Shown here piece after piece: positions 19,669-23,703 of a DNA stretch of 64,000 nt. How positions within the stretch are numbered: the stretch's first letter is position 1; the number at the start of each line of letters is the position of its first letter. A program made the translations under genes and the position numbers. This stretch comes from Candidatus Latescibacterota bacterium (GTDB lineage: Bacteria; Latescibacterota; UBA2968; UBA8231), in assembly GCA_965206595.1 (NCBI GenBank), contig OZ242214.1, positions 2,816,001-2,880,000 on the forward strand, in the 5' to 3' direction. Below the pieces are notes generated by a model. That model was given only the letters and a program-made list of their open reading frames with translations, searched no databases and was not told where the DNA came from.

Positions 19669-19840
19669 TCGCGGTTCTCCTTTCTACCGCCCTGCCTCAT
19701 TCTGCGAAACCATGCCATCTTTCGTTTCTCCTGGATTTAAAGATCGCACCGGAAACGCGGCTCCGGGTATCACCTGATCAGGTGATTTTTTTTTTCTGGT
19801 CCCCTGATCAGGTGACATCCCTGTCACCCGATCGGTTGAC
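19669..19840 (-). promoter_or_regulatory. Promoter-like segment, copy A, with three 18-bp palindromic sites
   Basis: ATCACCTGATCAGGTGAT (19769-19786, perfect), GTCCCCTGATCAGGTGAC (19799-19816), GTCACCCGATCGGTTGAC (19823-19840); homologous to 23461-23603. Confidence 0.7.
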
Positions 19841-19921
19841 GTTTCCGAAAAACGGGGGATTGGCCGGAAAAAGTCCGGCGCCGTGGGCTCCGCCCCCAGG
19901 AAACCGACTCGACCGCGCTCT

Positions 19922-20150
19922 TTCCTTGATACGACCCCACGAAGCCGACTCCACTGCAGTTTCCAGTCCACCAACAGGGACAAGCAACCCATCGGCAAAC
20001 TGGACCGGCCCATACTCGGAATCGTGGTCTATATGGCCCGGGTAAAAGAAAGATTGCGTCATAACCCCGTTCCTGAGAGTCCTCATCAAACACCGCTACC
20101 ATCAACCCTACAATACCATTCGGCCGCAGTTCCGAGATCATGGTCTTGTC
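19922..20150 (-). pseudogene. 3' remnant of an HxGDRxYP/SWGRIK-family gene
   Basis: Two frames give ISELRPNGIVGLMVAVFDED and FADGLLVPVGGLETAVESASWGRIKE, matching the C-terminus of 21857..22810. Confidence 0.72.
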
Positions 20151-20189
20151 CCTGCTGTCGGGAAGGTGATCGGATTGGAGATCGACGGT

Positions 20190-20455
20190 GATCACTCGTG
20201 GGCGAACGCGTGGTGCTGACGTAGTGCGACAGAGAAGTAATTCCCGTGCCGTCGGTGCGGCAAAGCGACCCGGATACGCCGGGGCGTATTTGACGGTTTT
20301 GAACTGGCTCTCCGAATAGGGGTTATCGTCGGCCGTCCGCGGGCTGCTTTAGCTGGCCAGGATATCGAGATCGACCAGCAGTTGCGAGAAGGTCTTGGCC
20401 GTCATCGGAGCGCCCCGGTCCTGGTGCAGGGTCAGCTGCCCCGGCTCGATGGCTT
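20190..20455 (-). mobile_element. IS3-family transposase (integrase core) remnant
   Basis: Hand translation: IEPGQLTLHQDRGAPMTAKTFSQLLVDLDILAS*SSPRTADDNPYSESQFKTVKYAPAYPGRF, with an internal stop. Confidence 0.78.
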
Positions 20456-20633: not shown

Positions 20634-21506
20634 TTATCGATTCGGCCTAGAAACGAAACATAGACTGTCGCCTGTCGGAGCCCAAGCAGGCTGGCGGTCT
20701 TGGCTGCCCATGGTCAATCGGGTGACAGCTGTGCCGTCCGGCGCCATGCGGTAGATGCTGAACAGGCCGTCCCGATTGGACGCAAAAGCGATTTCTCCGT
20801 TGCGGGACCAAGCCGGTTCCCGATCTTCATCGGGGTGGTTCGTCATCCGGGTCACGACCCCGGTTTCCACTTCAAGGACGCAGATTTCAATGTTGCCGTA
20901 ACGATCCGATTCGAAAGCCAGCCGGCGACCGTCCGGGGACCACGTTGCCCGGGCATCATAGGCCGGGTGGTTGGTCAGGTTGCGGAGGTTTTTCCCCGTT
21001 TGATCGGCGAGGAACAGCTCCATGTCGCCCGTGCGGTACGTGGTGAACGCGAAGTGCTGGCCATCGGGGGACCAAGCGGGAAAGATCCCGTCCGGGACCA
21101 TTAGCTCCGGCCCGTTTGCGGCCCCCAGCAGGCCCATGCAGAAAATGTCCCATCCCCCGGCTTCCATTTCACCCCCGAAGGCAATTTCCGCCCCGCCCGG
21201 CTTGGCGGATACCCCGGCCACGCTAATGAAGGGGGAACGTATGGGAATGTTCAGGAGTAAAACCCGAGCCGTGGACACTAGATGGAAGGCGTTCACCCTG
21301 CTCGTATGGGCAACGTACAAGACGCCCCGTCCGTCCGGCATCCAGCAGGGCATGTCCGTGCTGTCCACCACCGAAACGCGCCTGGGAGAACCCCTGTCCT
21401 GGGAAAGAACGAATACGCTTCCCCCGCGGTCATGGGCTGTCGCAGGAGGGCCATCGGCTAGCAACATTACAAGCAGCAGGAAGCCGGCCAAGATCGAAGG
21501 GCTCAT
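20634..21506 (-). CDS. Secreted TolB-like beta-propeller (PD40 repeats)
   Basis: Signal peptide; repeats PAWSPDG, ATWSPDG, PAWSRNG, FASNRDG. Confidence 0.82.
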   Translation of the reverse strand: MSPSILAGFLLLVMLLADGPPATAHDRGGSVFVLSQDRGSPRRVSVVDSTDMPCWMPDGRGVLYVAHTSRVNAFHLVSTARVLLLNIPIRSPFISVAGVSAKPGGAEIAFGGEMEAGGWDIFCMGLLGAANGPELMVPDGIFPAWSPDGQHFAFTTYRTGDMELFLADQTGKNLRNLTNHPAYDARATWSPDGRRLAFESDRYGNIEICVLEVETGVVTRMTNHPDEDREPAWSRNGEIAFASNRDGLFSIYRMAPDGTAVTRLTMGSQDRQPAWAPTGDSLCFVSRPNR

Positions 21507-21508
21507 GC

Positions 21509-21740
21509 CTTACTCCTCCTGCAAGGCGGCTTATTCCACGCCCCTGGATACGGATTCCACCGCGCTGTCTTCGCCTTCGCCTGATTCTACACTCCCGTCA
21601 GGACCCAGCAAAAGGCCGTCAATATAGCGGTCCCGGGTCAGCGAAAACGTCCGGCATCCCAAGCGTCCACGGCAGTCCTGGCTTCCTCCCCTTGGGTAGC
21701 AGTCGTAAATAACCACGTGGAAACCGATTACCTTATAATC
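21509..21740 (-). pseudogene. Degenerate 3' remnant of an SWGRIK-family gene
   Basis: KVIGFHVVIYDCYP...DRYIDGLLLGPDG...SAVESVSRG, then a disrupted stretch, then AALQEE* as expected for SWGRIKAALQEE. Confidence 0.6.
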
Positions 21741-21856
21741 CTCGAATGCCCGACGCATCCAAGACAGGTAGGGCTGGGTGTTGGATAAATCAAAGATACG
21801 GGCCCTTACCGAAACGGTCGGCTCTTTCTTAAAGGGATGGCCAAACCCTCCCTTGG

Positions 21857-22810
21857 CTACTCCATCTCCAAGGAGGCTTTGATTCGCCCCCAAGAATTCG
21901 ACGAGATCGCAGAGACTTCCGGTTCGTCCAATTCGGGCAGCAGAATACCATCGAAAAAACGATCCGCTTTATAGCCCAATATAGTAAAGAAGGTATCCCA
22001 GTCTGTGTCAGAAGTGGCTTCGGGACTCCACTGCATCCAGGAATTATCAGGTGGGTCATAATCATGCACTGCAATCGTAAAGCCGACGATCTGACCGGCA
22101 GCCAGATCGCTGATCACGGCTCCCTCGACGCTATCCCACGCATCACCCTTCTGGTCGAATGGCGTAACATAAAGCTCGATCACGCTGATAAAGGGAGCTT
22201 CTCCTGCTACCCCACCACCGCCGTCCCCATAGGGAGGCAACGCTGTCCAGGCAAACGAATCGGTATAAAACCTGGTGCCAAAGTCATCCAAGTTCGGACC
22301 GTTGGTATGGGCAATGGCTGCATATCTCTGAGTTCGTCCAGAGAGATCCAGCCACTCCTCCTCTGAGCAACTAGAACAGCCAGCACTCCCACTATGATCG
22401 CCGTCGAATGCCAGCATGATGCTGTCATAGTTATACATATTATCCCGTGAGGATGTGGCCCAATCCACGTTGTAATCGTGTCCGTTCTTGTATACGTCAT
22501 CGCTGGCCACAAAAGCCACATATAACCGTGCTGGTTCGTCGTGCCAGGCCAGCCAGATGCGGAAGTCAAGGTCGGCAGGATCAGGTGCCGAACCTTCATT
22601 TTCTTCCGTGAAATCCAGCAGGGTCATGGTGGGTTCGCCGACCAACTCGTACCACTCGTCCACCGACCCGTCGTCGAGCCGGATCTCCTCGAGCATCTCG
22701 TCGCTGAGGTAGGCGATCGGGTACACACGATCACCCACATGGGCACCGAATGGCACTGTCAGCGGGAGAAGGAGGCCCAGAGCCAATAGAGAACGACCGA
22801 TAGGGACCAT
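21857..22810 (-). CDS. Secreted acidic protein (CBM9/DOMON-like, tentative) with C-terminal SWGRIK motif
   Basis: Signal peptide, HVGDRVYPI, DGSVDEW, DLDFRIWLAW, DGDHSG, PPYGDGGG, ELYVTPFD, FFDGILL, SWGRIKASL. Confidence 0.75.
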   Translation of the reverse strand: MVPIGRSLLALGLLLPLTVPFGAHVGDRVYPIAYLSDEMLEEIRLDDGSVDEWYELVGEPTMTLLDFTEENEGSAPDPADLDFRIWLAWHDEPARLYVAFVASDDVYKNGHDYNVDWATSSRDNMYNYDSIMLAFDGDHSGSAGCSSCSEEEWLDLSGRTQRYAAIAHTNGPNLDDFGTRFYTDSFAWTALPPYGDGGGGVAGEAPFISVIELYVTPFDQKGDAWDSVEGAVISDLAAGQIVGFTIAVHDYDPPDNSWMQWSPEATSDTDWDTFFTILGYKADRFFDGILLPELDEPEVSAISSNSWGRIKASLEME

Positions 22811-22844
22811 CGTTTTATCATCACTTCCGTTTTATCATCACTTC
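22811..22844. repeat. 17-bp perfect tandem duplication upstream of a start codon
   Basis: CGTTTTATCATCACTTC x2. Confidence 0.9.
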
Positions 22845-22925
22845 AAGTCAACCAAATGGAGGACCGCTTTCATGGCCAACCTAAGCTTAGTTAGGGCAAA
22901 GGGCAACCCATAAATGCACCTTCCA

Positions 22926-22978
22926 CCGGACGGACGAGCACTCCACGCAAAAATGGGCATGGAGACTCGTCCGTCGGG
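22926..22978 (-). terminator. Stem-loop between peptide gene and partner gene
   Basis: GACGGACGAG..CTCCA / TGGAG.CTCGTCCGTC arms; no clear U-tract. Confidence 0.5.
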
Positions 22979-23012
22979 GGTAGACCTTGGTGCCTGAGGT
23001 CCCTTCAGGGTT

Positions 23013-23204
23013 TTAGTGCGAGCACTTGCAATGTCCCTCATCGCAATCGTGCCATTCTGAGCTTCCGTGTCCTGCTTGGGAACACGCATAGGCGCAAGCC
23101 CCAGACGAACTGGCGGTGGTGGTGAACGAATGTGCGCTCAACATGAACGCAGTGCCAAAGGAAACCACCGCCAAAACGGTGAGAAACACTCTGAGCTGTC
23201 GCAT
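23013..23204 (-). CDS. Secreted defensin-like Cys-rich peptide (63 aa)
   Basis: AAGGAG RBS; signal peptide MRQLRVFLTVLAVVSFGTAFMLSAHS; core ACAYACSQAGHGSSEWHDCDEGHCKCSH with CxxxC...CxC. Confidence 0.72.
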   Translation of the reverse strand: MRQLRVFLTVLAVVSFGTAFMLSAHSFTTTASSSGACAYACSQAGHGSSEWHDCDEGHCKCSH

Positions 23205-23460
23205 GTCTTGCTCCTTTTTCCCCGATTTTAGTTTGCCTGAACTTGACCTGTACCGGGAAACCAAGCCATTCAGGTACGAGAGGAGAAATCAATGACATGA
23301 TCTGGATACCTCTGGGCGCCGATTTGGTTTGTCTAAGGGGCACCAAGCGCTTGCGATTTTCCAGAGAAAAGGTGATCCATACTGCCGATTGTTTGCGCCA
23401 AGTCATCCCTGCCAATCCCCAGATGCTTTCCTTGGGGGCACGGGGGCAGCAACGTCGTCC

Positions 23461-23603
23461 TCGCGGTTTCCTTCTCCTTTCTCCCGCCCTGGGCTCATTC
23501 CCAAACCATGCCATCTTTCGTTCGTCCTGGATTTAAGATCGCACCGAAATGGCGGCTTCGGTATCACCCGATCGGGTGATTTTTTATACCCTGATCAGGG
23601 TAT
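23461..23603 (-). promoter_or_regulatory. Promoter-like segment, copy B, with two perfect 18-bp palindromes
   Basis: ATCACCCGATCGGGTGAT (23563-23580) and ATACCCTGATCAGGGTAT (23586-23603); shares AAACCATGCCATCTTTCGTT and CCTGGATTTAA(A)GATCGCACC with copy A. Confidence 0.7.
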
Positions 23604-23703
23604 TTTGCCGGAAAAAGCCGGTTTTTTGCCGAAAATTGGCCGGCTTGGAAGAGGTTTGGAGTGGGTGGAAAATCCCGGGGAGACCGGACTGTCCTGACGG
23701 GAG

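Follow-up and report, generated by a model that had tools for sequence, protein, structure and literature searches.

P0001 is a real and intact gene for a 63-residue precursor in the window, by which we mean the whole 64,000-nucleotide stretch of DNA that was analysed, and it belongs to a lineage-restricted, multigene family. The family is unannotated and fast-changing, and it comes from uncultured marine bacteria. For the mature part of the precursor, a beta-alpha-beta-beta fold is predicted, built on the cysteine-stabilised helix core known from cis-defensins and scorpion toxins. As the main reading, to which we give a probability of about 45%, we propose that the product is an exported defensin-fold module, braced by two disulfides, that presents a metal- or partner-binding histidine face and acts with CBM9-like proteins, and is not a lipid II antibiotic.

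P0001 and its relatives

The open frame of P0001 consists of 63 codons and a stop, and a Shine-Dalgarno site stands before its start codon (Table 1). The N-terminus is signal-peptide-like: a basic n-region is followed by a hydrophobic stretch and by an alanine at -1 of the predicted cleavage site, a residue found in 31 of the 33 aligned relatives. From these features we infer a Sec signal peptide cleaved at LSA/HS (the slash marks the cleavage site), and the product would be exported. Two other assignments were rejected by eye: a lipoprotein, since P0001 has no lipobox cysteine at the end of the signal peptide, and a cytochrome c, since CxxCH is absent.

The mature peptide has 39 residues, with five cysteines, five histidines and a net charge of -3. 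It begins with a histidine (H25, the fifth of the peptide, directly after the predicted signal-peptidase site), followed by a short linker, a CxxxC helix (C37 and C41), H46, a loop cysteine (C53) and a CxC strand (C59 and C61). The core string with five cysteines and four histidines that had been quoted earlier was found exactly in the translation. Searches of Pfam and NCBIfam with P0001 gave chance-level matches only (DUF2157, E 0.057; MgtS, 0.084), and a Protein Atlas search with the mature part gave no usable match.

The gene lies inside a stretch of low G+C content (0.556-0.589 at window positions 20-24 kb, compared with 0.66-0.70 in the flanks). Contigs from four public runs gave fragmentary cover of the locus; one contig was identical across the whole P0001 gene, and no variant letters were seen. 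A low-depth contig from another public run (138 letters, depth 2) joins position 22824 to position 23216. This join would delete the peptide gene and the hairpin behind it (22825-23215), but its shorter side is only 25 letters, and it may be a repeat artefact.

Table 1. Positions of the features discussed in the text, given in the window or, where marked G000:C1, in the genome to which the window belongs
Feature	Position	Strand	Remarks
PD40/TolB-like beta-propeller, 290 aa, third gene	20634..21506	-	Pfam PD40, 5.7e-32
Secreted CBM9-like protein, 317 aa, next gene	21857..22810	-	mature N-terminus GA/HVGDRVYP; tail WGRIKASLEME
Long hairpin	22929..22975	-	19-pair inner stem, no U tract; about 40 nt past the P0001 stop
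Gene of the 63-aa precursor P0001	23013..23204	-	translation MRQLRVFLTVLAVVSFGTAFMLSAHSFTTTASSSGACAYACSQAGHGSSEWHDCDEGHCKCSH; stop codon 23013-23015
Mature peptide, residues 25-63	23016..23132	-	from alignments and AlphaFold models
Sec-type signal peptide, residues 1-24	23133..23204	-	ends in LSA; predicted from sequence features
Shine-Dalgarno site AAGGAG	23211..23216	-	6 nt 5' of the P0001 ATG; by eye
Sigma-54-like elements (L004, L005, L007, L010)	G000:C1 6978172, 6984457, 522603, 6970209/6970241		GGCAC-N5-TTGC
Decayed family copies	G000:C1 613377-613526, 2293986-2294141, 2213425-2213562, 2213703-2213843, 5793695-5793865		

A genome search found at least 13 intact paralogues of P0001 in the window's own genome, which is a single contig of 7.05 Mb (G000). 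The pattern C-x-[YFW]-x-C...H...C-x-C was run on 114,845 six-frame open reading frames of this genome and matched 12 of them; on reading, 11 of the 12 had the build of a signal peptide plus cysteine domain, and the twelfth (C1:5793623-5793871) had lost its signal peptide. The P0001-type build exceeds chance in G000. A profile made from the paralogues recovered the window copy at E = 6.8e-18 and gave 18 matches in G000 and 10 in the same-genus genome G002, and at E <= 0.01 it gave none in 39 other relatives, among them the same-genus G001. About five of the 18 matches in G000 are decayed, being truncated, carrying an in-frame stop or lacking a signal peptide, and these copies indicate birth-and-death turnover.

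At one locus, L011 (G000:C1:2742258-2756812), three modules of peptide, PD40 and CBM9-like genes lie within 11 kb, with IS1595-family transposase genes between them, which suggests duplication aided by mobile elements.

Outside these genomes, an exhaustive profile search of 1.84 billion (1.84e9) representative proteins gave 37 matches at E <= 1e-3. We inspected 34 of them, leaving out the long multi-stretch proteins P0031, P0033 and P0034 (525-1300 aa); the full motif was present in 25 of the 34, and the other 9 were gene calls with a truncation or a frameshift. No functional name was attached to any of the cluster members read. In a DNA-pattern scan, a Candidatus Latescibacterota MAG was the only named genome record with the family, and the public runs containing DNA of the locus include ones labelled sponge, marine and coral metagenome; no run with RNA of the locus was listed. 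The deposited record of P0040, a protein of the six-cysteine P0007 cluster, calls it hypothetical and assigns it to a Gemmatimonadota MAG, so that the family may extend outside Latescibacterota, unless the bin carries a wrong label.

Conserved residues and predicted fold

The alignment comprised 33 sequences, namely 13 G000 paralogues and 20 complete metagenome proteins. Five of the 25 complete metagenome proteins were excluded, of which two duplicate paralogues exactly, one is a single residue away from P0001 and two have odd N-terminal extensions. Only C37, C41, H46, C59 and C61 are invariant in all 33, giving the motif C-x3-C-x4-H ... C-x-C, and the same five residues are invariant when the 13 intact G000 paralogues are aligned separately. 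The column of Tyr39 holds Tyr or Trp in 31 of 33 members, and most remaining mature columns are variable, with an entropy of about 2.2-3.6 bits.

Conservation of cysteine spacing among homologues, on which the first-pass annotation had let its defensin-like assignment depend, was therefore found, since CxxxC and CxC do not change in any of the 33. That annotation also viewed P0001 as a six-cysteine defensin whose first cysteine is missing. As a description of the family core this did not hold, because only the five residues above are invariant and the core is a four-cysteine CSH motif with an invariant histidine. It does fit a sister subgroup, P0007 and its three cluster mates, since all four carry a linker cysteine as well as a loop cysteine in the order C...CxxxC...C...CxC. 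The near-orthologues P0010 (one change) and P0039 (six substitutions and one insertion) keep C53, all other cysteines and the five mature histidines, and like P0001 they have the loop cysteine and no linker cysteine. The sixth cysteine that the first-pass annotation proposed to look for in orthologues is absent from the direct ones and present in the sister subgroup.

Across the family C53 is not conserved. The mature part contains four cysteines in 5 members, five in 19, six in 1 and seven in 8, and the number is odd in 27 of the 33. Extra cysteines occur in the linker, in the beta2-beta3 loop, beside C59 or past C61, and these differing places argue against a single fixed thiol ligand. Histidine is the residue predicted to come first after cleavage in 22 of 33 members, fills the linker column in 28 of 32 and is present at H46 in all 33; P0001 is among four copies without the linker histidine and has F27 there. 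As a crude control, histidine follows 11 of 332 other signal-peptide-like sites in G000, and 3 of these 11 are CBM9-like proteins. The mature parts have on average 4.3 histidines and a net charge of -2.7 (range -9 to +2; n = 33), and some members have only two histidines. The acidic, histidine-rich and odd-cysteine character first described for P0001 therefore extends, by composition, to the family as a whole.

An AlphaFold2 model of the precursor, run with 13 paralogues, had pLDDT values of 80-88 across the mature part, and it has strands at residues 28-30, 48-52 and 58-62 with a helix at 34-44. A mature-only model based on 18 sequences (mean pLDDT 78.3; five models, 74-78) has strands at residues 4-7, 25-29 and 35-39 of the mature peptide and a helix at 11-21, in the same order as the precursor model. 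Both models are beta-alpha-beta-beta and predict a helix on an antiparallel sheet, as in CS-alpha/beta proteins. Helix 34-44 contains C37 and C41, and strand 58-62 contains C59 and C61, so that the CxxxC and CxC halves of the CSH motif are placed in the helix and the C-terminal strand; these four cysteines are among the residues invariant in all 33 members.

Foldseek against the PDB found no match at E <= 1e-3, the best E values for the two models being 3.3 and 1.6. Judged by entry title, CS-alpha/beta proteins made up 10 of 15 rows in one run and 25-27 of 34 in the other, and the best small-toxin match was the scorpion toxin ADWX-1 (TMq 0.67, TMt 0.71, rmsd 1.6, 36 columns). A comparison with 48,161 chains by VIA-align gave 99 matches at Z >= 2 and none at Z >= 5. 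The best was Arabidopsis PDFL2.1 (Z 3.8), and the top 16 rows included 8 defensins or mytilin and 5 PAN/apple domains, which tie with the defensins among these non-significant matches. No member of the 33 matched a Pfam defensin or toxin family at E <= 1. A PDB profile search with the full alignment gave two matches, the better one being the insect defensin mutant 2e3e (E = 0.34) with CxxxC and CxC in register, and the same search with a mature-only profile gave nothing at E <= 10. Because no match was significant, the fold assignment rests on moderately confident prediction together with motif placement. The earlier identification as a CS-alpha/beta peptide is supported in that the fold was predicted twice and the cysteine spacing is kept in 33 of 33; a significant sequence or structure match to defensins was not found.

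The family shares with the cis-defensin/CS-alpha/beta superfamily (plant and insect defensins, mytilin and scorpion toxins) a small secreted product, a predicted beta-alpha-beta-beta order, a CxxxC helix and a CxC last strand. It differs in having a core of only four cysteines, no canonical GXC gamma-core, an acidic instead of a cationic character and no significant score, and it has an invariant histidine five residues after the second cysteine. The third disulfide (C1-C4) is missing from P0001, which has no cysteine before the helix and leaves C53 without a partner. Where the gamma-core GXC would stand at C4, P0001 reads H-D-C53; a recurrent G-x-C is found only at C59 (Gly in 18 of 33), which is the fifth-cysteine position of the defensin framework and not C4. 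The charge of P0001 likewise departs from the cationic one of antimicrobial defensins.

Among bacterial peptides, the closest in cysteine framework are the AdDLP-type myxobacterial peptides (Anaeromyxobacter, Stigmatella), which have four cysteines with the CSH motif alone and no GXC (PMC5116183); the likeness is one of description only. The P0001 family belongs to a different phylum and has an invariant histidine, a histidine-bearing linker and a fixed operon setting; P0001 itself has a fifth cysteine, and exactly four, the AdDLP arrangement, occur in 5 of 33 members. A 2024 census of bacterial cis-defensins lists 74 peptides, all with three disulfides and GXC and only from Proteobacteria, Acidobacteria and Actinobacteria, and describes unstructured, often acidic N-terminal tails in classes II-IV (PMC11561630). 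The peptides of classes I-V, including xanthusin-1, resemble P0001 in their signal peptide and CSH core as described there (PMC11561630), but P0001, with five cysteines, no GXC at C4 and a Candidatus Latescibacterota MAG as its nearest named record, does not fall into these classes. The actifensins and actinomycesin, compared by description only, are also bacterial defensin-like families that vary highly outside the cysteine framework, but they are antimicrobial bacteriocins of Actinomyces (PMC6989792, PMC8819291). A full-text literature search combining the stem Latescibacter with defensin found nothing on the P0001 family, and its matches look unrelated by title.

Operon setting and candidate regulatory elements

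The peptide gene is followed on the same strand by the CBM9-like gene and then by the PD40 gene. The 317-aa CBM9-like protein has no Pfam or NCBIfam match; in an Atlas feature search, its neighbour clusters contain PF06452 (CBM9_1) in 13-100% of their members. It gives 92 tblastn segments in G000, often in tandem arrays. The family, seen at the window gene and also at L011, L037 and L038, has as its invariants in an alignment a mature N-terminal histidine (A/H-x-G-x-R-x-[YF]-P), H90, H139 and the C-terminal tail WGRIK...L. The PD40 protein has a 46%-identical paralogue in the equivalent module of L011. The peptide, CBM9-like and PD40 genes recur together at paralogous loci in varying order, and at the loci examined a distance of 76-520 nt separates each peptide gene from a CBM9-like or PD40 gene that follows it on the same strand. 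Almost every peptide copy is the first gene of a CBM9-like operon; neither this setting nor the number of paralogues figured in the first-pass annotation.

Downstream of the CBM9-like gene and of the PD40 gene there are short frames at 21531-21893 (-) and 19824-20195 (-), in which ...SAVESVSRGVE forms the end and ...SAVESVSWGRS also occurs. Their resemblance to the CBM9-like C-terminal tail suggests remnants of it, which could be decayed or recombined cassette ends. In the 5' leader of the CBM9-like gene, a 17-nt unit (cgttttatcatcacttc, + strand) is present twice in tandem at 22811-22844 and abuts the start codon (22808-22810).

The hairpin behind the peptide gene has a minimum free energy of -62.7 kcal/mol over 136 nt (z = -5.75), and none of 200 shuffles folded as well. 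Comparable hairpins were found 3' of 11 of the 12 paralogues folded, several of them with U tracts, and the promoter region, the peptide gene and the hairpin recur jointly as a cassette. On the other side of the gene, between the response-regulator and peptide genes, lie two terminator-like palindromes on the + strand, ATCACCCGATCGGGTGAT (23563-23580) and GCCGGAAAAAGCCGGT (23607-23622), each followed by T runs.

Candidate promoters were sought with a sigma-54 -24/-12 regular expression, GGCAC-N5-YTGCH. A sigma-54-like element lies 74-76 nt before the ATG at three paralogues, and two such elements stand 90 and 122 nt before the ATG of a fourth (Table 1). A similar element was seen by eye at L008. 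The expression found none before P0001, and across G000 it is not enriched (115 found, about 165 expected). The window copy has a GG[AT]ACAGGTCAA block upstream, which is common to two other paralogues.

Possible roles of the peptide

According to the reading that we prefer, the peptide would be exported by Sec and cleaved at LSA/HS, and disulfides C37-C59 and C41-C61 would then brace the fold. A DSBA-family gene is present in G000, so periplasmic disulfide formation is plausible. A conserved face composed of His46, the exposed aromatic Tyr39, the N-terminal histidine and, in most relatives, the linker histidine would hold a metal ion (Cu, Zn or Ni) or a fixed partner, and the remaining surface would vary freely. 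In P0001, extra histidines and the free Cys53 may take the place of the linker histidine. The peptide gene would be transcribed first, ahead of the genes for the CBM9-like secreted proteins, and owing to the hairpin after its stop codon, transcripts of the peptide are probably more plentiful than those reading through into the CBM9-like genes. Outside the cell, the peptide probably works jointly with the CBM9-like proteins. Its acidic, histidine-bearing make-up suggests metal or partner binding, and a classical lipid II antibiotic is unlikely because of the charge and the missing gamma-core. Against a metal face stand the absence of the linker histidine from P0001, the members with only two histidines and the lack of any metal transporter or metal regulator gene near P0001.

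It is also conceivable, at odds well below even, that the peptide is a defensin-like secreted effector, such as a bacteriocin, an anti-eukaryote toxin or a host-directed ligand, which would act through its variable surface, bind no metal and owe its diversity to an arms race. To our knowledge, every characterised protein of the CS-alpha/beta fold acts extracellularly on foreign targets, and the titles of the Foldseek matches are those of defensins and ion-channel toxins. The evolutionary rates point the same way. We determined dN/dS for ten paralogue or orthologue pairs, with the signal and mature parts taken apart. In the signal peptide dN/dS was 0-0.34 in 8 of 10 pairs, and in the mature part it was 0.94-1.40 in 6 of 10 and 0.37-0.84 in 4 of 10. 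When changed codons were pooled over five non-overlapping pairs, the mature part had 56 non-synonymous and 23 synonymous changes and the signal peptide 16 and 17 (Fisher p = 0.03); the neighbouring CBM9-like genes had dN/dS values of 0.20-0.72. The mature sequences change faster than the signal peptides, and families of toxins and antimicrobial peptides show this pattern, in which the signal is conserved and the mature part changes fast around a fixed cysteine scaffold. This rate pattern also fits a scaffold on which few ligand residues matter, and a mature dN/dS near 1 fits relaxed constraint as well as functional diversification.

The birth and death of copies, with many paralogues and about five decayed ones, and the terminator-like hairpin after the structural gene would also suit an effector. 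The acidic charge of the family would not, as most antimicrobial defensins are unlike it in this respect, nor would the absence of a canonical GXC gamma-core and, in P0001, of a third disulfide. Bacteriocin-typical immunity or export genes were not found nearby, and an effector acting in this way leaves the conserved histidine positions unexplained. [quoted passage not shown]

We regard it as rather improbable that the peptide is an accessory subunit (an adaptor, cap, chaperone or inhibitor) that binds the downstream CBM9-like or PD40 protein and has no activity of its own. The position of the intact copies examined, directly upstream of a CBM9-like or PD40 gene on the same strand, agrees with such a role, as do the recurring cassette of promoter region, peptide gene and hairpin and the tendency of both the peptide and the CBM9-like proteins to begin, when mature, with histidine. 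The numbers of the two families speak against it. Profile matches to CBM9-like proteins number at least 54 in each of G000, G001 and G002, compared with 13 intact peptide genes in G000; G001 has 56 of them and no peptide match; and many CBM9-like arrays of G000 have no peptide gene within 6 kb. Of 24 same-family genomes, 22 contain CBM9-like genes, and G002 alone among them also has the peptide. The CBM9-like proteins are numerous where the peptide was not found, and so it is no obligate partner of theirs; their presence in 22 of 24 genomes indicates that the peptide was a later, dispensable addition to the operons. A complex prediction for the mature peptide and the neighbouring CBM9-like protein (score 0.01, mark 0.32) gave no evidence either way.

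A more daring proposal, to which we attach a small chance, is that of a new copper system outside the cells of sponge-associated bacteria, made up of the peptide and the CBM9/DOMON-like proteins, in which the peptide would serve as the copper carrier or redox partner that loads these proteins. The mature form of histidine-brace copper proteins begins with histidine, and this proposal is drawn from the fact that the mature forms of both the peptide and the CBM9-like proteins do so as well. If it is true, the CS-alpha/beta fold would for the first time be seen in a metal-handling role.

A RiPP precursor, such as a bufferin-like copper-binding peptide whose cysteines are converted by an MNIO enzyme, is very improbable. 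Bufferins are MNIO-modified, Sec-exported, small cysteine-rich periplasmic peptides with a proposed role in metal (copper) handling, and P0001 is likewise a small cysteine-rich precursor with a Sec-type signal. Its motif and its neighbours differ, however, the latter being CBM9-like and PD40 proteins with no modifying enzymes, and the MNIO family (MbnB/TglH/ChrH, PF05114) had no match in the 7.05-Mb genome G000 (completeness 92.9%), whereas the control Caulobacter was matched. A chance open reading frame or a decaying, non-functional copy can practically be dismissed: the family does include decayed copies, and one low-depth contig, weak with its 25-letter side, skips 22825-23215, but the frame of P0001 is intact, a Shine-Dalgarno site precedes it and none of the five invariant residues is missing, and P0010 and P0039 keep every mature cysteine and histidine.

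Bacterial defensin-fold peptides are few, and the P0001 family would add to them a lineage from Latescibacterota and one Gemmatimonadota-labelled record. It would also add an acidic, histidine-bearing version of the fold and bring two- and three-disulfide frameworks together in one family. The presence of four-, five-, six- and seven-cysteine forms within it would show how the third defensin disulfide is gained or lost, and whether the defensin framework arose in bacteria, a debated question, would become testable by comparison of close relatives. The position of the peptide gene at the head of the operon gives a handle on the role of a hugely expanded family of secreted proteins in uncultured sponge-associated bacteria.
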